Shown here: piece after piece, positions 5,995-59,625 of the stretch | Layout of the letters: each line of letters starts with the position of its first letter | Position numbering within the stretch: the stretch's first letter is position 1 | Assembly (NCBI GenBank): GCA_044345405.1 | Contig: JBIJBE010000005.1 | Location: forward strand, 60,701-124,700 | Direction: 5' to 3' | From: Bdellovibrionota bacterium | GTDB taxonomy: Bacteria > Bdellovibrionota_C > UBA2361 > OMII01 | DNA: 64,000 nucleotides | Made by a program: the position numbers and the translations under genes | Notes under the pieces: generated by a model | Databases searched by the model: none | Told to the model about the DNA's origin: nothing | What the model saw: only the letters and a program-made list of their open reading frames with translations

Positions 5995-6209
5995 TGTTCC
6001 CGATTCCTAATCCCTAAAGGTTTCTCTCTTTGCTGAAATTCTACCGTTTTCCCTAGCCAAGGTATCCGGATAACGTCCAACTCACTAAAAACTAACAGAT
6101 GGGGACGCCATATTCATAGCGGATTTACTCAAATAAAAAACACCTTTCGACGGTGGGCGAACCGAGACTATGCTGCCACCACAACAACTACAACAGAGAG
6201 GTAACGGTC

Positions 6210-6602
6210 ATGGGGACAAAAATAGAATGCTTTGAATCGATAGCCAACGCGCCAAAAGCGGTCGGCCCCTATTCCCCAGTCGTGCGCGCCGGAAACTTGG
6301 TGTTCCTCTCTGGACAGGTCGGGCTCAACCCCGAGACATCTCAACTCGTGGGCGCGGGCATCCAGGAACAGACCGAACAGGTGATGAAGAATCTTAAAAC
6401 GGTACTCGCCGGCGTTGGGCTCTCATTCAAGGATGTGATCAAGACCGTCATCTTCCTCACTGACCTCTCGAACTTTCAAACCGTGAACAAGATCTACGGA
6501 GACGCGCTTGAGGGACACAAACCCGCGCGCTCTACCATTCAGGTCAGCGCCCTCCCCCTCGGCGCGATCGTTGAGATCGAGATGATTGCGGTGGTGGGGT
6601 AG
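6210..6602 (+). CDS. ridA: RidA/YjgF family enamine-imine deaminase
   Basis: APKAVGPYS, SGQ, PARS, VEIE motifs; ATG 6210 preceded by GAGG. Confidence 0.9.
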   Translation: MGTKIECFESIANAPKAVGPYSPVVRAGNLVFLSGQVGLNPETSQLVGAGIQEQTEQVMKNLKTVLAGVGLSFKDVIKTVIFLTDLSNFQTVNKIYGDALEGHKPARSTIQVSALPLGAIVEIEMIAVVG

Positions 6603-6635
6603 AAAACGATTTTCATCACGAGAACCCGTGACCTC

Positions 6636-6726
6636 GGAGGGTGCTCATTCCTGAGCGCCCTGTCGCGCTTGGCAAATCACCTTCGCCGTACGTAACCACT
6701 CGGCGACCAGGAATGGTCGCCCTCCC
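6636..6726. repeat. REP-like doublet (cluster 1 of the dispersed GGAG-tagged palindrome family)
   Basis: GGAG-GGTGCTCA-TTCC-TGAGCGCC at 6636-6659 and the inverted copy TCGGCGACCAGGAATGGTCGCCCTCCC at 6700-6726. Confidence 0.85.
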
Positions 6727-6882
6727 GACTTTGCGACTCGCGCTTAGGTCTATTGATATGGGGAGAACGAGGAGTCGTCGCGGAGCCCACCCCACAAGGG
6801 GCGGGCCCCACTCCGAGGAAGCAAATCAGGGAACTACAACCAACAACCTAAAACCCTGTCAACGTGGACGAGTAGATACGCT

Positions 6883-6939
6883 TCACAGTGTGAAGACCTC
6901 GCTCACCAATACGACAGAATTAATTCCTATAGCCGACAT
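6883..6939 (-). CDS. Putative 18-aa small peptide MSAIGINSVVLVSEVFTL
   Basis: Minus strand reads AGAAAGGAGGTGATCC immediately before the ATG (AGGAGG 6 nt upstream); TGA at 6885-6883; below the ORF-track size cutoff. Confidence 0.5.
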   Translation of the reverse strand: MSAIGINSVVLVSEVFTL

Positions 6940-6955
6940 GGATCACCTCCTTTCT
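6940..6955 (-). promoter_or_regulatory. Extended Shine-Dalgarno site fully complementary to the canonical 16S rRNA 3' tail
   Basis: Plus strand GGATCACCTCCTTTCT equals the canonical 16S 3' terminus; flanking sequence is not rRNA-like. Confidence 0.75.
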
Positions 6956-7173
6956 CAAAGCAGGCCCCCTTCCCTATAGGAGAGAAGGTTCGCCTGAACT
7001 AGGCGACCGAACTCAGATCATCCGATGAGAGATGATCGAGAACTTAGGATTAGAATGAATATCTATAGCGCATAGCGCAATGACTAAAATGTGAGGGAAC
7101 GAAAACTTTTCTCTCTTGCGTGTCTCACAACAGAAGTGAGGTTCGACTCTCGGCGCCGGACTCATGCGCGCGA

Positions 7174-8370
7174 CTACTCAACGAACAACATGAGTCCCTT
7201 CAGGTAATCCCCCTCAGGATGAAAGATGCTCGTCGGATGACACGGCGCTTGGTGGAGAAAATCAACGACGCGAACAAATCTTCCGGCTGAGACCGCCGCC
7301 CGCATAATCGCGTCGCGGAACATCTCTCGTGAGATTAGTTGAGAACACGAGAACGTCGCGAGCGTTCCACCCGGTTTAATCTTCTTCAGCGCGAGCGCGT
7401 TTATCGTCTCATACCCTCGCATCGCTCGCTGCACCGCTCGCTGGTGCTTCGCGAACGCGGGAGGATCGAGAACGATAAGGTCAAAGGTATCTGGAATCTG
7501 GGTCAGGTAGCTAAAACAATCCGCTACCTCAGCGTTATGCGGGGCGCTCGCGAAATTCGCCACCACATTCTGCCGGCATAAATCGATCGCTGACTTGGAG
7601 GCGTCAACCGAGGTGACCGACTCCGCGCCACCAGCGAAGGCGTACACTGAAAACGCTCCGGTATAGCAAAAGGCGTTCAACACATGCTTACCACGCGCCG
7701 CGTCCCGTATCTTCTGTCGATTAACACGTTGGTCGAGGAAGAAGCCTGTTTTCTGGCCGCCGGTGATATCCGCCAAAAAGCGAAGTCCGTTCTCCGAGAA
7801 GGATACGACCTGGGAGGGCTCCGCGACGGTCGCCTCCACCTCGCCGGACTCCTCTTGCTCATCCATTTGAGACTCGACGCGACGAAAAATAACCTTTGAG
7901 AGACCAAGCTCTGGCATACCGAGCAGACTCCCCTGGATGGATTCGCGTACGCGCCACATCCCCGCCGAGTGACATTGAACGACCGCGGTGTCATCGTAGA
8001 GGTCAATCACGAGACCTGGCAGCTCATCCCCCTCAGCGTGGACCAAACGGAATCCATTTGTTGAGGCATTTCCAACAAGACCCAACCGTTCACGAACCCG
8101 TGTCGCGTTCGCGAGCTTTGCATGAATCAACTCACTCTCGCTTGTCACCTCTTCGAATGAGAGGAGACGAACGGCGATACCTCGCGTTCCCCAATGTCCA
8201 CATCCCAGCAGCGCGCCATCTTTTGAACGCACATCAACGAGGCACCCTCGTTGCAATGTGCCACGACGGTCGGCGATCGCGCCGGAGAAGATCCATGGGT
8301 GACGACGTTTAACAGCGGACTCTCGACCTTGACGAAGGACGACTACGGGACGCGAAGACTTTTCACTCAT
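7174..8370 (-). CDS. rlmI: RlmI-family 23S rRNA m5C methyltransferase
   Basis: PUA-like N-terminus (HPWIFSG), GQKTGFFLDQR, LNAFCYTG, LDPPAF, YLKG. Confidence 0.85.
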   Translation of the reverse strand: MSEKSSRPVVVLRQGRESAVKRRHPWIFSGAIADRRGTLQRGCLVDVRSKDGALLGCGHWGTRGIAVRLLSFEEVTSESELIHAKLANATRVRERLGLVGNASTNGFRLVHAEGDELPGLVIDLYDDTAVVQCHSAGMWRVRESIQGSLLGMPELGLSKVIFRRVESQMDEQEESGEVEATVAEPSQVVSFSENGLRFLADITGGQKTGFFLDQRVNRQKIRDAARGKHVLNAFCYTGAFSVYAFAGGAESVTSVDASKSAIDLCRQNVVANFASAPHNAEVADCFSYLTQIPDTFDLIVLDPPAFAKHQRAVQRAMRGYETINALALKKIKPGGTLATFSCSQLISREMFRDAIMRAAVSAGRFVRVVDFLHQAPCHPTSIFHPEGDYLKGLMLFVE

Positions 8371-35369: not shown

Positions 35370-36167
35370 ATGAGTAAAGAGACCACCTGCCTCGGCGTTA
35401 TACCGGTTCGACTGGAGAGCTCGCGCTTTCCTAACAAGCCACTCAAAGAGATTCACGGCAAGACACTCGTCGAGCGGGTTTGGCTGCAAGCAAGCAAGAG
35501 CCGGTGCGTAACAACACTCGTTGTCGCGACCAACAACGAGGAGATCGCCGCTGAGTGTTTAAAAAAAGGGATGCGTTACGTTATGACGAGCCCCTCGCAC
35601 GAGACAGGAACCGATCGCGTGGCGGAAACGTGCGCCGTTCTCGAAAAAGAGGGGCACTCATTCGATCTCGTCGCAAATATCCAAGGCGATATGCCCTTTG
35701 TTAATCCAACGGTCATCGACAGCGTGATCACCTCACTCGCGCAATCGGACGCTGGCTTCGGTATGGCGACGATCGGGACACCGATCGTGAGCCGGGAAGA
35801 ATTCGAGCGTCCCGCATCCGTGAAGATCGCCCTCGGCGAATCGGGCCGCGCGCTCTACTTCTCCCGCTCCGCCGTTCCGCATTGGAGAAACTTCCCCGGT
35901 GAGTCAGTCGTCTCAGCCGAAAATCCCCTCGGATACAAACACATGGGGCTCTACATCTTTCGTCGAGACACCCTAGCTCGTATCGCGACACTTCCAAAAG
36001 CGTTCACCGAACAACGAGAAGCCCTTGAGCAGCTCCGCGCGCTCGCGCACGGTATCGGCATCAAGGTACATATCGTATCGAGGGACTCGGTAGAGCCGTG
36101 CATTGAGGTCGATACGCCAGAGGACCTCGAGCAGGCGATTCGGTACGCGGAGCTTAAGAAGTTGTAG
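35370..36167 (+). CDS. kdsB: CMP-KDO synthetase
   Basis: IPVRLESSRFPNKPL, GTDR, NIQGD.P, ALYFSRS, LEQLRAL, VDTPEDL. Confidence 0.95.
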   Translation: MSKETTCLGVIPVRLESSRFPNKPLKEIHGKTLVERVWLQASKSRCVTTLVVATNNEEIAAECLKKGMRYVMTSPSHETGTDRVAETCAVLEKEGHSFDLVANIQGDMPFVNPTVIDSVITSLAQSDAGFGMATIGTPIVSREEFERPASVKIALGESGRALYFSRSAVPHWRNFPGESVVSAENPLGYKHMGLYIFRRDTLARIATLPKAFTEQREALEQLRALAHGIGIKVHIVSRDSVEPCIEVDTPEDLEQAIRYAELKKL

Positions 36168-49322: not shown

Positions 49323-50621
49323 GTGAACGAAATTCGTTACACTCCCACCATGACTAGCAAAGGCAGCATCTCGACTCATTCGTCTGACCAGGCCGCTTCA
49401 CGCCGTCCTCACGATGGCATGGGGGCGGGTAACTTAGCGCCTCTCCAGGGTGACGGAGACATCCTAGCGTCGACCGACTTTCAGATCTCCTCCGACTCCG
49501 ACGACGCGTTGCACATGGAGCTCTATCGCCGATTCGATTCGGCAATGGGTAGTTGCAAATATTTCTCGTTGAACGAAGTCGCATTCGCCCCAGCAGCGCC
49601 ACGGATTCCGGCACTACTTGCTGAGACATTAAAAGATCCGGAGAATCGTTCATGCGCCTGGCGCTATTTTGGAACCCTTGGTATCGACGGCGCGTTTTCC
49701 GCCACGGAACGACGAGCTCTCTGTATCGGACTCCTCTCCTACGTGAATCAAGACCGAGCCGAGTGCGTCATCCCCCTTATCGAGATGGCGCTCTACGCGA
49801 GCGATCATCGAGATATGCCGCTTTACAAGGCGATCGGAGAGGTGGCTCGAGCCGCGGGCCTCGGAAGGGAGCTCGCGGCTGCGACCGTCTCTGGATTTTG
49901 CAAGCTTTCTAGCTATAATGCGGTCACGGAGACCGCATTCCATCCATGGATCGCCATCCTGGCCCATTCAGATAGCGAAACGGTGTATGCTCAGATAGCG
50001 GAGACTCTCGCCGCGCGCGTTGGAAACAGGCAGCCGGGAACGTACGATCACCTTCTGAGAACGTTGTGCCAATCTCCCTCGCCACACGCAGTATCAGCGC
50101 TCCGTTTAATGGTAACCGCTCCTTATCCCCCTATCGCCGATGAGATCCCAAAGCCGCGTTCCCTGAAAGTCGGCCTCTGGACCGGCACCCTGCTCTGCCT
50201 CGCAACGGTGGCGGCCCAAGGATTTCTTCACGCGGCGACGGCTTTTCTGCGATCTGAGGAACTAGGGATGGCTGTCATGACGGCGCTGCTTTCTCCACAA
50301 GTCTGGACCGTTGGAGCATCGGCCGGCACCCTGTGTGGCCTTACGCTCGTAGGATGGATGTGGAAGGAACGAAGAAAGGCGATCGAGTTCTTCGACGCCA
50401 TTCGAGACTTTTTCAAAAGCTCAGATTACCTGCACTTCGCTGAGCGGGTGTACGCGGGACTAGGAGAGTCAGCTTCACGTAATCCCTACGCCACATCTCT
50501 TCGAGTTCACATGGAGCACTCCGACGTACACGCTTCGGCAGTAGAAACATGGAAGAGACTCTATCCTGTGCACTACTACTATGAGGGCAGGCGACATGCC
50601 GGAGCGCACCGTGAAAGCTAG
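49323..50621 (+). CDS. Hypothetical helical protein with 2-3 C-terminal TM segments
   Basis: 432-codon ORF; hydrophobic stretches around residues 282-348; start uncertain. Confidence 0.6.
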   Translation: MNEIRYTPTMTSKGSISTHSSDQAASRRPHDGMGAGNLAPLQGDGDILASTDFQISSDSDDALHMELYRRFDSAMGSCKYFSLNEVAFAPAAPRIPALLAETLKDPENRSCAWRYFGTLGIDGAFSATERRALCIGLLSYVNQDRAECVIPLIEMALYASDHRDMPLYKAIGEVARAAGLGRELAAATVSGFCKLSSYNAVTETAFHPWIAILAHSDSETVYAQIAETLAARVGNRQPGTYDHLLRTLCQSPSPHAVSALRLMVTAPYPPIADEIPKPRSLKVGLWTGTLLCLATVAAQGFLHAATAFLRSEELGMAVMTALLSPQVWTVGASAGTLCGLTLVGWMWKERRKAIEFFDAIRDFFKSSDYLHFAERVYAGLGESASRNPYATSLRVHMEHSDVHASAVETWKRLYPVHYYYEGRRHAGAHRES

Positions 50622-51120
50622 AGACAATTTTCCGGGAGGAACCATAACGATGGCAAACGGTCCGAGGAATACATCCGCACCCCCACTCGCGGAGGATCTT
50701 CTCAGGCTCGCGTGCGCTTCCCGGGCGCTACTTGAACAACGTCCCGACCTTCGAGGCATGAGACGAGAGGAGCTCGCGGAACTCACCCTCCGACAGATTG
50801 AGCGGGATCAACTCTCACATGAGGTTCTCACCTCTTTTTCTCCCCGATGCGCCTACTTTCGAAGCCAAGTCGCGGCGGTTGCGGATCAAAAAGCACAACA
50901 ACAACTTGGAGGCGCTGAGATAGCCCTTGATCTAAGCAACGCGCTTCCAGCCGCTCTGGCGGGACTCTCCCTTTCCCCTTCGTGCAGAGCACTCGCCGCC
51001 GAGCAGTTACTGTCTCTTACCGACCAAAACGCCAACAATTTCTCAAGACTGGTGGGTGTCCCAGAAGCGGAGCCGCAGTCATCGCGCAAGGAGCCTCCTC
51101 ACTATCCGACCCTACGGTAG
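50581..51120 (+). CDS. Hypothetical protein
   Basis: Open frame; GGAGG before an internal ATG near 50650 suggests a later start. Confidence 0.5.
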   Translation: MRAGDMPERTVKARDNFPGGTITMANGPRNTSAPPLAEDLLRLACASRALLEQRPDLRGMRREELAELTLRQIERDQLSHEVLTSFSPRCAYFRSQVAAVADQKAQQQLGGAEIALDLSNALPAALAGLSLSPSCRALAAEQLLSLTDQNANNFSRLVGVPEAEPQSSRKEPPHYPTLR

Positions 51121-51227: not shown

Positions 51228-52874
51228 TTGACGTGTCTCGGGGGCTGGGTGAATGCTCCATCCGTGATGACCAAAGGAAAGATATCTTCCTGCATACTGA
51301 TTTTTCTATGCGCGATTATCGTGCGGGCTGTCGGCGTCCCCTTCTTCTTTTTCAGTCCAGATGAGTTGATGGATCTTGGGGTCTCTCAGGGGGCGTCTTT
51401 ACGAGAGGTACTTCACCGTTCAACGGTCGAGGTGCATCCACCACTGGAGCAGTTGATGAAGAGACTACTCCTCTGGAGCACCGACAATGTGGCAGTCATT
51501 CGCGGTGTCTACTGTTGCTTGGGACTGATGGCGGTGACCGCGCTCTCACTGGCGGCATATACGGTTGGCGGCCTCAGCGCTGGATTAACGTGCTTTACGA
51601 TCGCCGCTTTTGTGCCGGCATATGTCTCTATCTCTCTTCTCGTTCGTGGCTATGGGCTGTTCGCGCTAGCGATTGCGCTCGCCCTTCGTGAGTTCTTCCT
51701 CCTTGGCAAAAGTCCATCCCCATATACAACCGGTCGAAGCTGGGCGCTGGCGCTATGGCTCGCCCTGGCGTGCGCGACTAACTTCGCTGGCTTTCCGTTT
51801 GCCTGCGCGATCCTACTCTCACTTGCTTCGCTTCTCGCTACAAACCGAAGTCCGACCAGATATATGTACATAGGTACGATAGCCGCGGCTCTAGCTCTTG
51901 AGGGAGCGGTTCTTTGGTGGTGGTACTTCTCACCGGAGACCGGAGCCGCTGAATGGCGCGCCATGAGTAGGAGCCCCTACTTCGAGCAATGCGCCGCGTT
52001 TCAATCCCTATCTTTATGGGTCGTACGACTTTTGACCCTCTTTGTACCCCTTCCTGTTAATCTGATACCTGCCGAATTATTTGTGACAGTCGGCGCGGCG
52101 CTTGTTGTCCTCTATGTGAGAGCACTGGCGCGTTTACGAAACACACACCGGGAACTTGTCGTGTTTGCCTGCATCGCGTGGGGGCTCTCAACAGCGCTTA
52201 ATTTCGCGGGTTTTTACCCACTGGTTGGCCCCCGCCACTCAATTTGGCTCTTACCGGGGATCTTCATTCCTCTCTCGGTCGTTTGGGGACACTTCATTCT
52301 GGCGCATCCCCGCGTTATCGGATTGCTCGTTGTGACGATAACCGCGTTTTCTCTCAAGGGTTGGTACTTTAACCATACCAACGACTTTCCCCTTCCGACC
52401 GCCAATTATCAGGCGGCGAAAGATTTCATTCAGAGAGAGGTCGCTACCGAGGATATTATCATTACCGATCGATTCGGCTTACTCTACGTGTTGTATGAAC
52501 AGGACAGGTTACGCACCTTCTATGAGCCTTCTGAGCCGATCTACTCAACGTCATTTTTAGGGCATCGCGTTCTGGCATCCACCCCCGAACGAAGGTGGCA
52601 ACTAACTCAGCAAGATATAACGCCACTCATGAACGAGCTCCAAACAAAATCAGCGCAAGAAGCGAAGGTCTGGCTGCTCTCTCTTGGATTCAAAGATAAT
52701 GTAATGGAGCAGTTACGGCGCTGCGCGGAGGAAAGACAGATCCCCCTGAGGACCATGGATCTTGCTGGCGTATCCATCGTCGGAGGTCAGACCAGGGACT
52801 TTACGAGGCTTTTCGGATCATCCAGCGAATGCTTCGCCGACTACCGGGACAATTTATGCGCTAAGAGAATATGA
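51228..52874 (+). CDS. GT-C fold glycosyltransferase (PMT/ArnT-like, GT39/GT83)
   Basis: First TM followed by DE motif (FSPDE), EVHPPL, S..VRGY; many TM helices plus a soluble C-terminal domain; start possibly ATG 51267. Confidence 0.75.
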   Translation: MTCLGGWVNAPSVMTKGKISSCILIFLCAIIVRAVGVPFFFFSPDELMDLGVSQGASLREVLHRSTVEVHPPLEQLMKRLLLWSTDNVAVIRGVYCCLGLMAVTALSLAAYTVGGLSAGLTCFTIAAFVPAYVSISLLVRGYGLFALAIALALREFFLLGKSPSPYTTGRSWALALWLALACATNFAGFPFACAILLSLASLLATNRSPTRYMYIGTIAAALALEGAVLWWWYFSPETGAAEWRAMSRSPYFEQCAAFQSLSLWVVRLLTLFVPLPVNLIPAELFVTVGAALVVLYVRALARLRNTHRELVVFACIAWGLSTALNFAGFYPLVGPRHSIWLLPGIFIPLSVVWGHFILAHPRVIGLLVVTITAFSLKGWYFNHTNDFPLPTANYQAAKDFIQREVATEDIIITDRFGLLYVLYEQDRLRTFYEPSEPIYSTSFLGHRVLASTPERRWQLTQQDITPLMNELQTKSAQEAKVWLLSLGFKDNVMEQLRRCAEERQIPLRTMDLAGVSIVGGQTRDFTRLFGSSSECFADYRDNLCAKRI

Positions 52875-53222: not shown

Positions 53223-54113
53223 GTGCTTTTTGTCCTTATTCTCATCAACTCATTAGCTACGGCGCTCTACGTTATTCTATCCACCAAGCTGGTCCGACAT
53301 AGTGGGTTCAAGGTTTCCGACGTTCTCGCCGGGAGCCATGTAATCGCTTCCGTGGGATTGGCGTTCATTGTAAGCGCGGATGTGTCAGCAGGATCCATGG
53401 ATAGCTCCGCGTATTGGTTGATTGGCGCGTCTGTTCTCTTAAAGGCATGTTCCAAATGGTTGTATTTCTCCGCCCTCGCCCTCGGAGACGTGGCTCCTTT
53501 AAGCTTCATGAGTGCACTTATTCCTTTAATCGGCGCCGCGTTCGCGTATCTTTTTTCGGGACAGACCAACAGCGCAATTGACATTGCGGGAATTATCGCA
53601 GCCGTATCGCTGTTGGTATTTTCATTAAGGATCGAGCACCGAGCCGCTCGTAGAAAGTCGTTTATTACAGATCATCGGGCTATGAGCTGGACGATTGGAG
53701 CCCTCTCCGCCTTAGCTAATGGAATATCAGCCGTGACACTGATGATGGCGGTTATGCGAGTAGCGCCTCCGCTAGTCTCCTTTTTTAATACCGCGCTCGT
53801 TGCCTTCATATTTATGGGGTACTCGGCGCGTCCAGCCGCTCAGGGGAGTCGCGGGGGAATCCCTTTTTTGTCGATATTCCGTCTACCGGAATTATGGCTC
53901 ATCTCGCTTTTTTTTCTGCTCAGTCACCTCACGCATACCTACCTCTTTACTATCGCGCCTGTGGGACTTGTGCTCGCTTTGGAGCGTTTGAACGTTTCCA
54001 TGCAAGTGATTCTGGCAAAACTTATCTTGGGCGAGAACGATAATTTTCCGCTCAGATTGCTGTGTGCGGTCGCGTTTATGGGTATCACTCTTCTTACTGA
54101 GGTTCTGCGTTGA
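53223..54113 (+). CDS. DMT/EamA-superfamily transporter
   Basis: About 10 hydrophobic segments in two repeats within 296 aa; YFSAL..GDV...S......P pattern. Confidence 0.75.
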   Translation: MLFVLILINSLATALYVILSTKLVRHSGFKVSDVLAGSHVIASVGLAFIVSADVSAGSMDSSAYWLIGASVLLKACSKWLYFSALALGDVAPLSFMSALIPLIGAAFAYLFSGQTNSAIDIAGIIAAVSLLVFSLRIEHRAARRKSFITDHRAMSWTIGALSALANGISAVTLMMAVMRVAPPLVSFFNTALVAFIFMGYSARPAAQGSRGGIPFLSIFRLPELWLISLFFLLSHLTHTYLFTIAPVGLVLALERLNVSMQVILAKLILGENDNFPLRLLCAVAFMGITLLTEVLR

Positions 54114-54949
54114 TGCAACATTCCTCAACAAAAAAGTTACTCTCGGTTATCTTTTGTGCATCGACGCTCACCGTAATCTTCTCTTTGGATTCGATTGCGA
54201 GCATCGCGCGTTTTTGTCGCAACGAATGGGATATCTTTCTTCTGAAGCAGGGATACGTATCCTTCCAACAGCCTGTATTCCTGAGTGTGTCACAACCCCT
54301 AGGAACCATAAAATCTCTCGACGAAAGAGAGGGCAGCCCCCGACTAAAGGAGGTTCTTACCAAGCTTGCTGAAATTTCCCCCGAGAAAGATCCTTTCGCT
54401 GGCGCCAAACGATGCGCTCTCGTAGGGAACTCCTCTCAGCTTATGGGTTCTGGACTTGGGAAAGCTATCGATTCCTTTGATACAGTAGTGAGATTCAACG
54501 AAGCACCTACCATTGGGTATGAGAGCGATGTTGGAAGCAAGACCTCTATACGTTGGACCAACTCAAGGCGAATGCCCCCCCCAGCCGAACAAAAGGTCGG
54601 CATTTCACTCATCACCACGGTATTTTTCCCTACGGACTTGTCATTGATTGAGGGCAGAATTCTCCGTGATGAATACAGCCAATTCACAACAGTTCGTATC
54701 CTCTCTCCAGAGCTAACCAGTTGGGTTACAGGGTTGGTAGGCTATGGGCCTTCATCAGGCATCATCGCCACGCTAGCTGCCGTCATAAAATGCGAGGAAG
54801 TCTCAGTATTCGGTCTCGGCCCCGGAAGAGACGGTTTGTGGTCCCATTATTTTCCGAAGGAAACACCTCTACCCTCTTACCATTCTATCGAGAACGAACA
54901 GCGCCTTTTGAACATTCTCAAGAAAGGAAAGCTAATCGAACTCTACTAG
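54113..54949 (+). CDS. GT29 sialyltransferase-like glycosyltransferase
   Basis: L motif CALVGNS...GKAIDSFDTVVRFNEAPTIGYESDVGSKTS; S motif PSSG...CEEVSVFG; motif III HYF; VS motif HSIENE; N-terminal hydrophobic anchor; TGATG overlap with the upstream gene. Confidence 0.9.
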   Translation: MQHSSTKKLLSVIFCASTLTVIFSLDSIASIARFCRNEWDIFLLKQGYVSFQQPVFLSVSQPLGTIKSLDEREGSPRLKEVLTKLAEISPEKDPFAGAKRCALVGNSSQLMGSGLGKAIDSFDTVVRFNEAPTIGYESDVGSKTSIRWTNSRRMPPPAEQKVGISLITTVFFPTDLSLIEGRILRDEYSQFTTVRILSPELTSWVTGLVGYGPSSGIIATLAAVIKCEEVSVFGLGPGRDGLWSHYFPKETPLPSYHSIENEQRLLNILKKGKLIELY

Positions 54950-55127
54950 CCAGGATTGGATATCCACACGAGGTTTAGGGCTTGACACTCCTGCCCTGTC
55001 TCACTCATATAACCTTAGAGGCTCCACAAAGGCCCGGGTGTCGGTCCACGAGCGTGCGCTTAGCCTGCGGCGCGATTTGCGTTGCGCCTCACCTTCATCT
55101 TTTATCCATATATGCGAGTAGAGTTGG

Positions 55128-55871
55128 ATGCACCCGATTTATGTAGGATACGATGCCCGAGAGCACATCGCTTTTGAAGTACTGCAAAGTTCAATCCTCA
55201 GCCACAACCCGGACTCACAGATTCTCCCACTGGAACACAGCTCTCTCAGAAAACGAGGAATTTTCAGACGCCCTTGGTTGGTTGAAAGCAACACTGGCAG
55301 AAAAATCGACCTAATCGATGGAAGACCATTCAGCACCGAGTTCAGTCATTCCCGATTCCTCGTTCCCTACCTCTGTAACTTTTCTGGATGGGCTCTGTTC
55401 ATCGACTGCGACATGTTATGTACAAGGGACATCAACTCCATATTCGATCTAACACGAGACGAATATGCCATCATGGTAGTAAAGCAGAATCACTGCCCCA
55501 CTTCCGAAACTAAAATGGACCAACAGGTGCAAAGTACGTATCCTCGAAAAAACTGGTCCAGCGTCGTACTTTGGAATTGCGCGCACGATGCTAATAAGAC
55601 GCTGAATCCGGAGTTCGTCAGTGTTGCCTCAGGCGCCAACCTCCACCAATTCACTTGGCTGCAGGATTCGGATATCGGGGATATCTCGCCCGAGTGGAAC
55701 TGGATCCAAGGAACCACGTCCGACTCTATCGAGCCCGCTCTGATTCATTACACCGAGGGCGGTCCATGGTTCGAAGGGCACGAGAAGGTCAAGTTTGGCG
55801 AACTTTGGATTCAGGAATACGCACGTTGGTTGGCTAGTGAGCAGAAGAGAATTCTGGGGCTTCTAGGATGA
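55128..55871 (+). CDS. GT-A nucleotide-sugar transferase, GT8-like/plant CDI-like
   Basis: IYVGYD.RE, STEFSHSRFLVPYL, DCD (DxD), YPRKNWSS, HYTEGGPWF. Confidence 0.85.
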   Translation: MHPIYVGYDAREHIAFEVLQSSILSHNPDSQILPLEHSSLRKRGIFRRPWLVESNTGRKIDLIDGRPFSTEFSHSRFLVPYLCNFSGWALFIDCDMLCTRDINSIFDLTRDEYAIMVVKQNHCPTSETKMDQQVQSTYPRKNWSSVVLWNCAHDANKTLNPEFVSVASGANLHQFTWLQDSDIGDISPEWNWIQGTTSDSIEPALIHYTEGGPWFEGHEKVKFGELWIQEYARWLASEQKRILGLLG

Positions 55872-56755
55872 AAGGTATGGAGTGTAGGCTTTGTGGCGCG
55901 GAGAGGTGTTCAGTGGCAAAGCGCGGAATCCGTCATGATACCTCGATTGATGTATACCGTTGTAGCGTTTGTCGCAGTGGATTCCTGTCATCTTTCGAAC
56001 ATCGGCCTACGGGCTATTATCAAAATGACCATTTTGTGACATCATCGGCTTTCAAAGGCAGGTCCATCCCTGAGCGCATTCGGCATTTTGATAGAGAAAC
56101 GCAAACTCGGTTGAGGCGGCATGAAGGCTTGACCAAAAACAAGCGAGTTTTGGATTATGGTTGTGGAACCGGCGCGTTTCTTACTGGGTTGAGCCGAGTT
56201 GCTCAGAATGTCGTCGGGATAGAGCCTCTCATTTCCTTCAAAGAGCACGTAATCTCCGCGGGAATCGAATGTTTTTCGAATGTCAGCGAATTGCCCGATC
56301 AAGCGGTTTTCGACGTTATCTTCGCTTTTCACGTTTTTGAACATCTCGAAGATCCGCTGGGGCATCTCACTGCTCTCAGCAAGCGCCTCGCTGCCGATGG
56401 GCGAATAATCATTGAGGTTCCAAACATCGATGACGCTCTTACCGGGCTCTTTACTTGCCAAGAATACGTCGACTTTATTTTTAACCCGGATCATCTCTTT
56501 TATTTTTCCCGCGAGAGCCTTTTATGGCTCGCGGAGCAGGCAAATCTTTGCGTAGATGGCGTGCGATTCGTACGAAGATATCCACTCTCAAACCACCTCG
56601 GGTGGTTGAGCAAAGGCCGTCCAAATGGAGATCTGTACTTTGGGGGGATTTTTGATTCCGAGCCTCTTACCAATTCCTACGAGGCGGCACTCGCTGCTTT
56701 AGGCGCCACGGATACGCTTCTTATTCAACTGAGGCAAAGCTCTGGCGCTCTCTAA
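55868..56755 (+). CDS. Class I SAM-dependent methyltransferase with N-terminal zinc finger
   Basis: CRLC...CSVC; VLDYGCGTG; HVFEHL.DP; EVPN; ATGA overlap with the upstream gene. Confidence 0.88.
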   Translation: MKGMECRLCGAERCSVAKRGIRHDTSIDVYRCSVCRSGFLSSFEHRPTGYYQNDHFVTSSAFKGRSIPERIRHFDRETQTRLRRHEGLTKNKRVLDYGCGTGAFLTGLSRVAQNVVGIEPLISFKEHVISAGIECFSNVSELPDQAVFDVIFAFHVFEHLEDPLGHLTALSKRLAADGRIIIEVPNIDDALTGLFTCQEYVDFIFNPDHLFYFSRESLLWLAEQANLCVDGVRFVRRYPLSNHLGWLSKGRPNGDLYFGGIFDSEPLTNSYEAALAALGATDTLLIQLRQSSGAL

Positions 56756-58401: not shown

Positions 58402-58623
58402 CTCTCTGTAGCCGGGCTACTTTTTTCTCTCTGTAGCCGGGCTACTTTTCCCGCCCCGCCGCGCAACTTTTCTCTCTGTAGCCGGGCTACTTCTCTCTGT
58501 AGCCGGGCTACTTTTCTCTCTGTAGCCGGGCTTTCTCTCTGTAGCCGGGCTACTTTTTCTCTCTGTAGCCGGGCTACTTTCTCTCTGTAGCCGGGCTACT
58601 TTTCCCGCCCCGCCGCGCAACTT
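58402..58623 (+). repeat. Tandem array of 8 GTAG-tagged mini-palindromes (CTCTCT-GTAGCCGGGCTAC-Tn)
   Basis: Cores at 58408, 58433, 58478, 58499, 58522 (truncated), 58541, 58565, 58587; spacer CCCGCCCCGCCGCGCAACTT occurs twice. Confidence 0.95.
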
Positions 58624-58650: not shown

Positions 58651-59625
58651 ATGAGCAAGGATATGAAATATCACCCTCACGGGAGCGTTTTGTTTTGCAC
58701 GCTTAGCCTTGAAGAGGGACTACTACTGTTGGCCAATCCACTATGTGAGGCGATCGTGAAGAGCTGCCTTGCAGCAGCAAAAGAGCTCTACCCCGTGCGG
58801 ATCTGCCACATGATTGTCGAGGGAAGTCACATCCACCTAGTATTGGTGGTGATAAATCCTGATGATGTGAACGCATTCTTTCGGCACTTCAAAACCGAGT
58901 CAGCACACATGATTAACGGACTCCTCGGTCGAAAAAAGCGAACGCTCTGGTGCGAGGGCTACGATAGCCCCATCGTTCTCACTCCTGAGAGAGCTTTGAT
59001 GGCGATAGCCTATCTTTATGCGAATCCAGCCAAGGATAACTTAGAAACTTCCATCGATAGGTATCCCGGGTTCTCAACTTGGAAGATGTTTCAGTCAGGA
59101 AAACTAACTCGTCAGTGGAAGCGTTTGAGACGTCCCCAGTTTACACCCATCCCAAGAGATGCCAACAACCCGCGAGGATATACAAAGCTAGCTGAAGAGC
59201 TCCTTGACGCATCCGATGAAGTGCAAACATTTACCCTTGAGCCGAACGCGTGGATAGAGTCGTTTGGATACCACTCTCAGGGAGAGCAGCAAAAACTAAA
59301 TGAGCAACTGGTCGCGCACATCAGATTGCTTGAGGACCGAGCCGAGAAGAAGAGAGTACAAGAAAAGAAGCGCGTCATGGGGAGAGAGCGTCTGCTCACC
59401 CAGGTTTTCGACACGAGCTATCGCCCTGAACGATCTGGGCGACGCACGTACTGTCTCTCACACAAGCGTAGCATTCGATTGGGATTTATCAGATTTTTTA
59501 AGGCGCTCATGCAGAAAGCGAGGGCGGTTCGGGAGAGATGGAAGTTGGGGCACGTTACAGTTCCGTATCCCCCTGGATTGTATCCACCGTCTATGCCGAA
59601 ACTCGCGAACGTGCTCGCGCGCTAG
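58651..59625 (+). mobile_element. REP-associated tyrosine transposase (RAYT/TnpA-REP; IS200-like HUH Y1 domain with long C-terminal extension)
   Basis: HUH motif HIH (GSHIHLVL), LW..GY, catalytic Y...NP (YLYANPAK), C-terminal W..G...V.YP.G; flanked by GTAG palindromes. Confidence 0.85.

Follow-up and report, generated by a model that had tools for sequence, protein, structure and literature searches.

A DMT-superfamily transporter gene overlapping a GT29-family glycosyltransferase gene in a freshwater Bdellovibrionota bacterium: a rare candidate for bacterial nucleotide-sugar export

Glycosylation outside the cytoplasm is understood to use lipid-linked donors in bacteria. The gene pair described here, which lies in a 64,000-nucleotide stretch of DNA from a Bdellovibrionota bacterium (the window), raises the question of whether a bacterium could move an activated sugar across its inner membrane to a waiting glycosyltransferase, as is done in the Golgi. 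The pair consists of an EamA/DMT-superfamily transporter gene (53223..54113, + strand, 296 aa, GTG start), recognized by its ORF, a Pfam match and a structural model, and a GT29 (sialyltransferase-family) gene (54113..54949, + strand, 278 aa, ATG start), recognized by PF00777, phmmer and fold. Reading the sequence of the coupling junction (54099..54115, + strand), we found GAGG at 54099-54102 followed by TGATG at 54111-54115, in which the stop of the transporter gene (TGA, 54111-54113) shares a base with the ATG of the GT29 gene (54113-54115). The overlap with a transporter gene of about ten transmembrane segments, first noticed in an initial annotation of this DNA, is thereby confirmed; an in-frame TTG at 54110 is also open as an alternative start of the GT29 gene. 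The junction is no assembly artefact, since contigs from all four of the other, independent runs span it.

The 54113-54949 product is a genuine GT29-family protein, an assignment far beyond chance. Pfam Glyco_transf_29 (PF00777) matched it over HMM positions 30-269 of 272 with an E-value of 1.1e-34 and a score of 120.5 bits, the cut-off being 23 (115.7 bits in the genome-wide search), which bears out the membership proposed initially. The closest solved relative found by phmmer was pig ST3Gal-I (2wnb, E 1.1e-18), and the AlphaFold model (pLDDT 80.8) also had ST3Gal-I as its top Foldseek match (2wnf_A, E 3.5e-14, TM 0.56), with ST8SiaIII, ST6GalNAc2 and ST6Gal1 as further matches (3.5e-14 to 3.6e-08 with ST3Gal-I included) and GT42 CstII reaching only 1e-4. 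The sialylmotifs L, S, III and VS, whose names and residue roles are those of the literature on the family, were all located, in that order and with the L and S cysteines. From the ST3Gal-I alignment and a column check, motif L covers residues about 98-145 (54404..54547, + strand), with C101, N106, D120, R127 and N129, and motif S covers residues 213-235 (54749..54817, + strand), with S214-S215-G216, C227 and G234; motif III (H245-Y246) and motif VS (H257 and E262) were placed by the column check at 54845..54898 (+ strand). Of the 42 aligned GT29 sequences, 41 have H257 and 40 have E262. In the alignment, C101 and C227 fall on the cysteines of motifs L and S in ST3Gal-I, and this pair is found in only three of the 42 sequences (the window protein, P0002 and P0004), as is a cysteine at the column of C227. 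In the periplasm, a C101-C227 disulfide could form; the genome has four DsbA-family genes.

The N-terminus of the GT29 protein, an export signal or signal-anchor in residues 1-31 (54113..54205, + strand; hydropathy, model and comparison with P0002), begins with the basic MQHSSTKK, continues with about 17-19 hydrophobic residues (core 9-25; Kyte-Doolittle 1.85 over 19 residues) and then reads SIA-SIA, and the AlphaFold model has a helix at residues 4-22. The short basic start (KK) and hydrophobic stretch described earlier are thus present, and the layout is kept in P0002, the only close relative of the protein, which has 65% identity, the same length and the same cysteines and begins with MKRVAVRK, a hydrophobic stretch and AIA. 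Two to four basic residues, 17-19 hydrophobic ones and a small-x-small end (SIA or AIA) are common to both proteins; by eye, 15 of their first 35 residues are identical, as against the 65% overall. Among the 42 aligned proteins only four, the window protein being one, have a strong N-terminal hydrophobic segment. This N-terminus would suit a cleavable Sec signal no less than a type II anchor, and an N-in, C-out orientation is predicted, by the positive-inside rule only, because the basic residues stand before and not after the hydrophobic segment in both orthologues.

Several of these features are those of the eukaryotic Golgi GT29 enzymes (pig ST3Gal-I 2WNB/2WNF, ST8SiaIII, ST6GalNAc2 and ST6Gal1), which have in common with the window protein the four sialylmotifs, the L/S cysteines, the fold and the order of short basic N-terminus, hydrophobic segment, poorly ordered stem of ~50-70 residues and catalytic domain. 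Unlike them, the window protein is encoded on a bacterial chromosome in a genome where no sialic-acid synthase was seen, is much smaller (278 aa, with a catalytic part of about 185 aa), has only 22-28% identity to the solved Golgi structures and may begin with a cleavable Sec signal. Bacterial GT29 homologues are known, as the initial annotation had noted, and the portion of Petit et al. (2018; PMC5811610) used here describes them as lacking a transmembrane segment and these cysteines. The bacterial and phage GT29-like proteins are of the same family, have the D/R/N and H...E catalytic residues and lie in prokaryotic glycan loci, as does the window protein; unlike it, they have, as far as that portion of the source and our survey of 85 other loci go, no transmembrane segment, no L and S cysteine pair and no DMT neighbor. 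The presence of both an anchor and the cysteine pair in the window protein and P0002 is therefore new relative to the bacterial GT29 proteins described in that portion of the literature. Within the searches made, the window protein is the first bacterial GT29 found to keep the predicted eukaryotic anchor and disulfide signature, and such a protein bears on the debate, raised in the same portion (PMC5811610), over the direction in which the family was transferred between bacteria and eukaryotes.

The AlphaFold model of the transporter (pLDDT 88.5) has ten long helices and matches every solved DMT fold with a VIA Z of 18.7-30.8, against 7.8 for the next fold, and the ten-helix DMT fold is clear in this model. 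The VIA Z was highest for LicB (30.8; rmsd 2.5 over 271 residues), followed by YddG (24.7), TPT (24.5), CST (22.6) and Vrg4 (21.6), a ranking that may be skewed by the conformation in which the protein was modelled and that, as a fold comparison, is unable to name the substrate. Set against the SLC35A1-type CST, with which a structural comparison had been suggested, the model is thus nearer to LicB. In sequence, Pfam EamA (PF00892) matched residues 4-129 only, that is, the first half of the protein, with an E-value of 7.1e-06 and 26.8 bits, slightly short of the cut-off (28.2); all 15 members of the transporter's clade match EamA (best E 1.4e-25). Of the SLC35/nucleotide-sugar transporter families (PF04142, PF03151 and PF08449), Nuc_sug_transp and UAA were matched by none of the 15 at E <= 1 and TPT by one (E 0.48), and the Atlas neighbors of the transporter are bacterial EamA clusters. 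The idea of a Golgi SLC35-type transporter was not upheld by these results; the protein appears to be an ordinary, divergent bacterial transporter of the EamA type and is not SLC35-like.

With SLC35A1, the CMP-sialic acid transporter, and other Golgi nucleotide-sugar transporters (6OH3, 6I1R and Vrg4 5OGE), whose job is the one proposed for the window transporter below, the protein has the 10-helix DMT fold in common (Z 20-23 over ~270-290 residues); it differs in having no sequence-family match and ~10% VIA identity to them, and it is structurally less close to them than to LicB, YddG and TPT. LicB (7PAF, a choline importer) and YddG (5I20), both bacterial EamA-type proteins, are the closest solved structures and have 13-14% VIA identity to it. 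The clade of the window transporter stands far apart: of 1.84 billion representatives searched, only 17 matched with E <= 0.001. Invariant polar residues peculiar to this clade include H39, K74, K78, H235, H238 and R255. We also considered a topologically inverted transporter, as lysine and arginine residues cluster in the odd-numbered loops of all 15 clade members; this was rejected because, of three further EamA proteins from the phylum, two have the same bias and one the opposite.

How far the two genes belong together was estimated from their distribution. The contigs that carry P0006, a relative of the transporter with 66% identity, and P0002 are both 5382 bp long and presumably identical; both genes and the export signal are conserved in one relative. 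The next relatives of the transporter, P0007 and P0008, are on contigs of 1341 and 3541 bp. At 85 other loci (5 genome and 80 metagenome), no DMT gene was found beside the GT29 gene, a weak test of linkage in that the GT29 proteins of these loci are anchor-less. The linkage is seen in one lineage only, effectively n = 1. Among the loci examined, a DMT relative adjoins the GT29 gene only in the window and in the close relative, in keeping with the earlier impression that the coupling to a transporter is undescribed, and among the prokaryotic-type GT29 loci an export signal occurs only where a DMT gene adjoins. Neither gene was found in any of 34 congeners, which is indicative that the pair comes and goes together. 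A scan of metagenome contigs with a pattern for the DMT clade gave 216 pattern matches and no relative. Our literature searches found nothing on GT29 in Bdellovibrio, nothing relevant by title or abstract on periplasmic glycosyltransferases with exported nucleotide sugars or CMP-Kdo, and nothing useful on signal peptides of Photobacterium sialyltransferases.

To predict the donor, we scouted the genome for genes of CMP-activated ulosonic acids. No NeuB-type synthase was seen in this genome, rated 99% complete, and its two weak PF03102 matches are DAHP synthases; production of CMP-sialic acid is hence unlikely. Two genes for the CMP-Kdo synthetase KdsB were found, one of them in the window (35370..36167, + strand; TIGR00466 kdsB, 179.7 bits against a cut-off of 155.2), and CMP-Kdo is the only CMP-activated ulosonic acid that the genome was seen to produce. 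Owing to the two KdsB genes and the lack of a NeuB-type synthase, the donor is more likely CMP-Kdo than CMP-sialic acid. The KdsB copy of the window was considered as a donor supply specific to the GT29 protein and rejected, as at least two PF02348 matches are found in 23 of 35 genomes of the genus (G000, the genome of the window, included). That a GT29 enzyme can work on CMP-Kdo within a lumen is indicated by plant RCKT1, which the excerpted part of PMC12168206 lists as the RG-II CMP-Kdo transferase on the strength of mutants, noting that bioassays are still to come. According to the same part, RCKT1/MGP2 is a GT29 protein that meets CMP-Kdo in an extracytoplasmic compartment of an organism without sialic acid (PMC12168206). 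Given the two KdsB genes and no NeuB, RCKT1 is the best functional analogy for the window protein, which by this analogy may use Kdo.

The reading that we prefer, with a probability of roughly 30%, is a Golgi-style one. The two genes would be translated as a coupled unit and belong to an accessory island for envelope glycans, and the GT29 protein would be a compact inverting transferase using CMP-activated ulosonic acids. Sec would send it across the inner membrane, so that its catalytic domain would be periplasmic, tethered or released, where the eukaryote-type L-S cysteine pair would form its disulfide. The 10-helix EamA/DMT carrier would carry the CMP-activated donor, most likely CMP-Kdo or a relative, out of the cytoplasm to the periplasmic side of the membrane, perhaps by exchanging it for CMP, and the GT29 protein would transfer the acidic sugar directly, with no lipid-linked donor, to cap an envelope glycan. 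If this is true, the pair would be the first bacterial nucleotide-sugar transporter together with the first periplasmic Leloir-type glycosyltransferase. Being small and clonable, the gene pair offers a way of asking whether a bacterial DMT protein carries a CMP-sugar; bacterial candidates for nucleotide-sugar transport that can be tested in this way are rare. Should the DMT protein have a different substrate, what is left is an unusual exported GT29 protein in an accessory glycan island.

The export features of the GT29 N-terminus and the cysteines also suit an enzyme that is periplasmic or secreted, conceivably into prey (relatives in the phylum are predators secreting many enzymes), next to a transporter that does not supply its donor and instead takes up a different small metabolite, as LicB does, or exports one, as YddG does; the donor would then come by another route or be extracellular. 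With a 15-member clade that is essentially EamA only, a choline importer (LicB) as its nearest solved structure and a fold that names no substrate, the transporter is open to such a role, and we hold this alternative to be somewhat less probable than the preferred reading, as the stop-start overlap and the joint presence and absence favor one function and no other extracytoplasmic source of a CMP-sugar is evident. A similarly tentative alternative keeps the catalytic domain in the cytoplasm, where the N-terminal helix would only tether it to the inner membrane, as in many envelope glycosyltransferases, while it transfers cytoplasmic CMP-Kdo onto a lipid-linked intermediate; the DMT protein would be an unrelated neighbor or handle a by-product or product. 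This would agree with the adjoining GT8 glycosyltransferase (55128-55871) and the class I methyltransferase overlapping it (55868-56755; together 55128..56755, + strand, from Pfam), neither of which has transmembrane segments by hydropathy, and with the other two GT29-like genes in the phylum, which sit in cytoplasmic polysaccharide clusters. Comparable enzymes are Neisseria Lst and Haemophilus LsgB, which are GT52 and not GT29 proteins and, unlike the window protein, have no adjacent DMT gene. In the part of PMC8092323 drawn on here, these are LOS sialyltransferases that also transfer Kdo, with CMP-Kdo as an alternative donor; Lst has no SignalP signal peptide and was shown to be cytoplasmic though once thought surface-exposed, and how the CMP-sugar and the enzyme meet across the membrane is called an open question. 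The same part has the bacterial sialyltransferases and Kdo transferases of tested location, Lst among them, acting in the cytoplasm, where the short-lived, quickly decaying CMP-Kdo is made and used (PMC8092323). Against a cytoplasmic domain stand the basic residues that precede the hydrophobic segment in both orthologues, pointing to N-in, C-out, and the L/S cysteine pair, which is otherwise absent in prokaryotic-type GT29 proteins and would have no use in the reducing environment of the cytoplasm.

Acquisition of a eukaryote-type GT29 gene in fairly recent times, with the anchor and cysteines as leftovers and the DMT gene adjacent by accident, would explain why the language-model neighbors of the protein are chordate sialyltransferase clusters, why ST3Gal-I is its closest solved relative and why the gene is missing from all 34 congeners; the GC content of the pair is also slightly lower (0.48-0.50) than that of the flanks (0.52-0.58), a small difference. 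Yet the frame is intact with all catalytic residues kept, and the orthologue at 65% identity keeps the length, the signal layout and the cysteines, which is indicative of long residence under selection. In a GT29 tree of 82 sequences, with no animal or plant sequences included, the stem leading to the window protein and P0002 is long (1.53) and joins other long branches with weak support (64); the two proteins lie neither in the haptophyte clade (41 rows) nor in the short clades of prokaryote and phage type, and inside no sampled eukaryotic clade. The stretch is moreover present in 24 lake-water runs from 24 studies, nine of which are possible sources of this DNA, and we consider a recent capture very improbable. 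A role of the GT29 protein as an effector aimed at a eukaryotic host cell found no support, the stretch being found in lake-water metagenomes. No RNA runs were among the runs listed as holding the stretch, and a promoter and terminator scan gave matches no more numerous than in shuffled sequence.

Upstream in the same accessory glycan island lies a gene for a 548-aa polytopic membrane protein (51228..52874, + strand), which has about 12 hydrophobic segments by hydropathy and no match in Pfam or NCBIfam; homologues were found in two of the 34 congeners, and homologues of the GT8 glycosyltransferase in three. We examined whether the DMT protein could be a lipid-sugar flippase serving this protein and rejected it because of the 349-bp gap between the genes and because the homologue in genome G095 (43% identity) stands alone, without DMT or GT29. 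In that genome the ORFs on either side of it are, by eye from the translations, RNase H-like and GTPase-like.

From our analysis of the Bdellovibrionota genome (3.59 Mb, 85 contigs, 99.4% complete), the stretch was found in 24 lake-water metagenome runs from 24 studies, nine of these runs being possible sources of the DNA. A DMT transporter gene (53223-54113, + strand, 296 aa, GTG start) runs into a glycosyltransferase gene (54113-54949, + strand, 278 aa, ATG start), and the sequence confirmed the overlap described in the initial annotation: in TGATG at 54111-54115 the TGA stop of the first gene overlaps the ATG of the second, and GAGG lies ahead of that start at 54099-54102. The junction was crossed without rearrangement by contigs of four out of four other runs. 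In one metagenome run (X11), two contig variants, with 0 vs 12-25 differences per 151-251 bases, occurred together at 54481-55090 (the 3' third of the glycosyltransferase gene and the downstream spacer), which indicates strain-level diversity at this gene.

The second gene had been read as a GT29 with sialylmotifs L, S, III and VS and the L- and S-motif cysteines, to be checked against the Glyco_transf_29 HMM, and this was borne out. The protein matched the Pfam profile at E 1.1e-34 (120.5 bits) and had no NCBIfam match; all key residues of the four motifs were present in an alignment of 42 sequences. Its best solved relative by sequence was pig ST3Gal-I (E 1.1e-18), in the alignment with which Cys101 and Cys227 line up with the cysteines of motifs L and S, and SHYF with HHYW. 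The AlphaFold model (pLDDT 80.8; mostly 80-98 in the catalytic part, <50 at residues 49-60) gave E 3.5e-14 to 3.6e-08 against ST3Gal-I, ST8SiaIII, ST6GalNAc2 and ST6Gal1, and only ~1e-4 against GT42 CstII. As sequence, motifs and fold agree, GT29 membership is established. The N-terminus reads MQHSSTKK, then LLSVIFCASTLTVIFSL, then DSIASIARFC, and the model has a helix at residues 4-22, short helices, a disordered stem and a catalytic domain from about residue 76. In the sole close relative, P0002 (65% identity, 278 aa), MKRVAVRK is followed by a hydrophobic stretch and LLPAIAVFC; only 15 of the first 35 residues are identical (counted by eye), but the layout of basic residues, hydrophobic core and small-x-small is common to both despite the drift, in keeping with the short basic (KK) N-terminus and hydrophobic stretch originally noted. 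Because basic residues precede the hydrophobic segment, the positive-inside rule predicts an N-in, C-out protein with a Sec signal peptide or signal-anchor. No downstream in-frame start with a ribosome-binding site that would bypass the segment was found in the gene.

For a prokaryotic GT29 the protein is unusual. Across the phylum, 5 of 124 genomes, this one included, had a PF00777 match (three above cut-off), and none of 34 congeners had one; a motif-L pattern scan over one genome per prokaryotic species gave five loci. Among 87 GT29 ORFs from the best 80 of 191 metagenome relatives, nine (212-641 aa, one being a 246-aa fragment with an open 5' end) had a hydrophobic segment that begins no later than residue 60, and the two of these placed in the tree (L035 and L040) fell in a clade with named haptophyte proteins; the short ORFs of the same loci, mostly 170-280 aa, had no N-terminal hydrophobic segment. 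The L-motif cysteine occurred in 18 of the 42 aligned sequences, and the S-motif cysteine in only three: the window protein, P0002 and P0004, another aligned GT29. Since the hydrophobic segment and the cysteine pair are this rare in the prokaryotic GT29 alignment and loci, the protein is a bacterial GT29 bearing the eukaryotic signature; this agrees with Petit et al. (PMC5811610), by whom bacterial GT29 proteins are described as lacking the transmembrane segment and these cysteines. A tree built from 82 sequences grouped it with P0002 (SH-aLRT 99) on a long stem. This two-protein clade lay outside the clade of the haptophyte proteins and outside the short prokaryote- and phage-type clades, and it joined other long branches only weakly. 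The neighbours of the window protein in an atlas of language-model features, which is not a phylogeny, were chordate sialyltransferase clusters.

The transporter scored 26.8 bits against EamA, slightly below the cut-off of 28.2 and over residues 4-129 only. All 15 aligned members of its clade matched EamA, none matched Nuc_sug_transp or UAA, and one matched TPT, at E 0.48. When 1.84 billion representatives were searched exhaustively with HMMER, only 17 matches reached E <= 0.001, the nearest relatives showing 36% and 34% identity, and the atlas neighbours were bacterial EamA clusters. The model (pLDDT 88.5, pTM 0.87) has ten long helices, as the earlier count of about ten TM segments would have it, and matched every solved DMT carrier. 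The VIA-align Z was 30.8 for LicB, a bacterial choline importer, 24.7 for YddG, a bacterial EamA-type carrier, 24.5 for TPT, 24.4 for PfCRT, 23.6 for SLC35B1, 22.6 for the CMP-sialic acid transporter and 21.6 for Vrg4, with the next fold at 7.8. Family matches, few relatives and fold ranking thus make this a genuine but isolated bacterial DMT and no SLC35 derivative; the proposed likeness to Golgi nucleotide-sugar transporters was not upheld, either by family or by structure. Comparison of folds does not reveal the substrate. Invariant polar or basic residues of the four closest members include H39, K74, K78, H235, H238 and R255, the invariant residues being placed in helices 2, 3, 8 and 9 by the helix ranges of the model, and an anionic substrate would perhaps suit them. 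In 15/15 clade members, Lys/Arg cluster in loops 1-2, 5-6 and 7-8 (9-16 residues vs 0-3 elsewhere), which predicts both termini outside; the same bias was seen in two of three further EamA proteins from the phylum, and the opposite in the third.

We then surveyed the linkage of the two genes. P0002 and P0006, a relative of the DMT (66% identity), are each found on a single contig, of 5382 bp and of the same source class, so that they almost certainly share it. The DMT had no relative in 34/34 congeners, and elsewhere in the phylum weak matches only (E 7e-5 to 6e-4). At five genome GT29 loci, every ORF of 100 aa or more that lay up to 5 kb from the GT29 match had three hydrophobic segments or fewer. 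In the best 80 of 191 metagenome loci (at least 1 kb upstream in 56, downstream in 47), 0 of 1448 ORFs matched the DMT-clade profile; two hydropathy scans gave 12 membrane-like neighbours, and the 11 put through Pfam included no EamA, one MarC and otherwise no family. The phylum's two other GT29-like genes belong to cytoplasmic polysaccharide clusters that also contain genes for GT4, GT2, pyruvyl transferase, TylF methyltransferase and PhyH. As the other loci examined show no DMT, the proposed linkage holds in the window lineage and is limited to it, the one whose GT29 has the predicted export signal; this fits export, yet it is a single evolutionary observation. At locus L006 of G112, a genome of the same order, the beginning of a GT29 gene without anchor (6827-7711 of the locus) is overlapped by a PhyH-family dioxygenase gene (6040-6909), both lying inside a GT4/TylF polysaccharide cluster.

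For the donor, NeuB (PF03102) had two weak matches only in the genome, both DAHP synthases by NCBIfam, and PF02348 matched two genes, both KdsB (CMP-Kdo synthetase) by NCBIfam, at 35370-36167 (+ strand) in the window and at 17196-17861 of contig C66. With two KdsB genes and no NeuB, CMP-Kdo is the only CMP-ulosonic acid that the genome is seen to make. A tie of the window KdsB to the GT29 was rejected because within the genus 23 of 35 genomes, this one included, have at least two PF02348 matches; the frequent doubling suggests a second Kdo-containing glycan in the genus. GT29 enzymes can use CMP-Kdo, by the example of plant RCKT1/MGP2, which is listed as the CMP-Kdo transferase of RG-II on the strength of mutants, bioassays being still required (PMC12168206). 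CMP-Kdo is also accepted by Neisseria Lst and Haemophilus LsgB (PMC8092323). Four DsbA-family genes were found in the genome, and no DsbB.

Our leading reading, to which we give about one chance in three, is that the DMT would supply a Sec-exported GT29, which would cap an envelope glycan, with a CMP-ulosonic acid (probably CMP-Kdo). The predicted topology would equally serve an exported GT29 beside a DMT that carries something else, a reading that we hold unlikely though credible. A GT29 tethered to the membrane and facing the cytoplasm runs against the predicted orientation, and it is favoured by all that is known of the sialyltransferases and Kdo transferases of bacteria and by the instability of CMP-Kdo (PMC8092323); we consider it doubtful to a similar degree. 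That the gene, with its motifs complete, is a functionless relic seems very improbable. Bacterial GT29 proteins are already published (PMC5811610), and the DMT fold is in print; our literature search found no report of an export signal, a cysteine pair or translational coupling to a DMT for a bacterial GT29, in accord with the impression that the coupling was undescribed. The export reading would make the pair categorically new only if transport and topology were shown.

Around the pair, accessory glycan genes form a mosaic. A GT8 gene (homologues in 3/34 congeners) and an overlapping methyltransferase gene, both without transmembrane segments, lie 179 bp downstream of the GT29. Upstream, 349 bp from the DMT, a 548-aa polytopic protein (51228-52874, + strand) with about 12 hydrophobic segments had no Pfam or NCBIfam family and homologues in 2/34 congeners; it is independent of the pair, because its homologue in the congener G095 (43% identity) stands alone. 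Its first loop reads SPDE...HPPLEQ, and NPDE...HPPLEQ in that homologue, which may resemble the first-loop motifs of GT-C (ArnT/PMT_2-like) glycosyltransferases. Just upstream of the glycan genes, ORFs of 432 and 179 aa without any family (49323-51120, + strand) sit where GC is higher, at 0.56-0.58. At 58402-58604, a 22-bp unit that contains the palindrome GTAGCCGGGCTAC is present in nine tandem copies, directly followed by a 324-aa IS200/Y1-transposase-like gene (58651-59625, + strand; Y1_Tnp E 2.2e-4), an arrangement that resembles a REP array and its RAYT.
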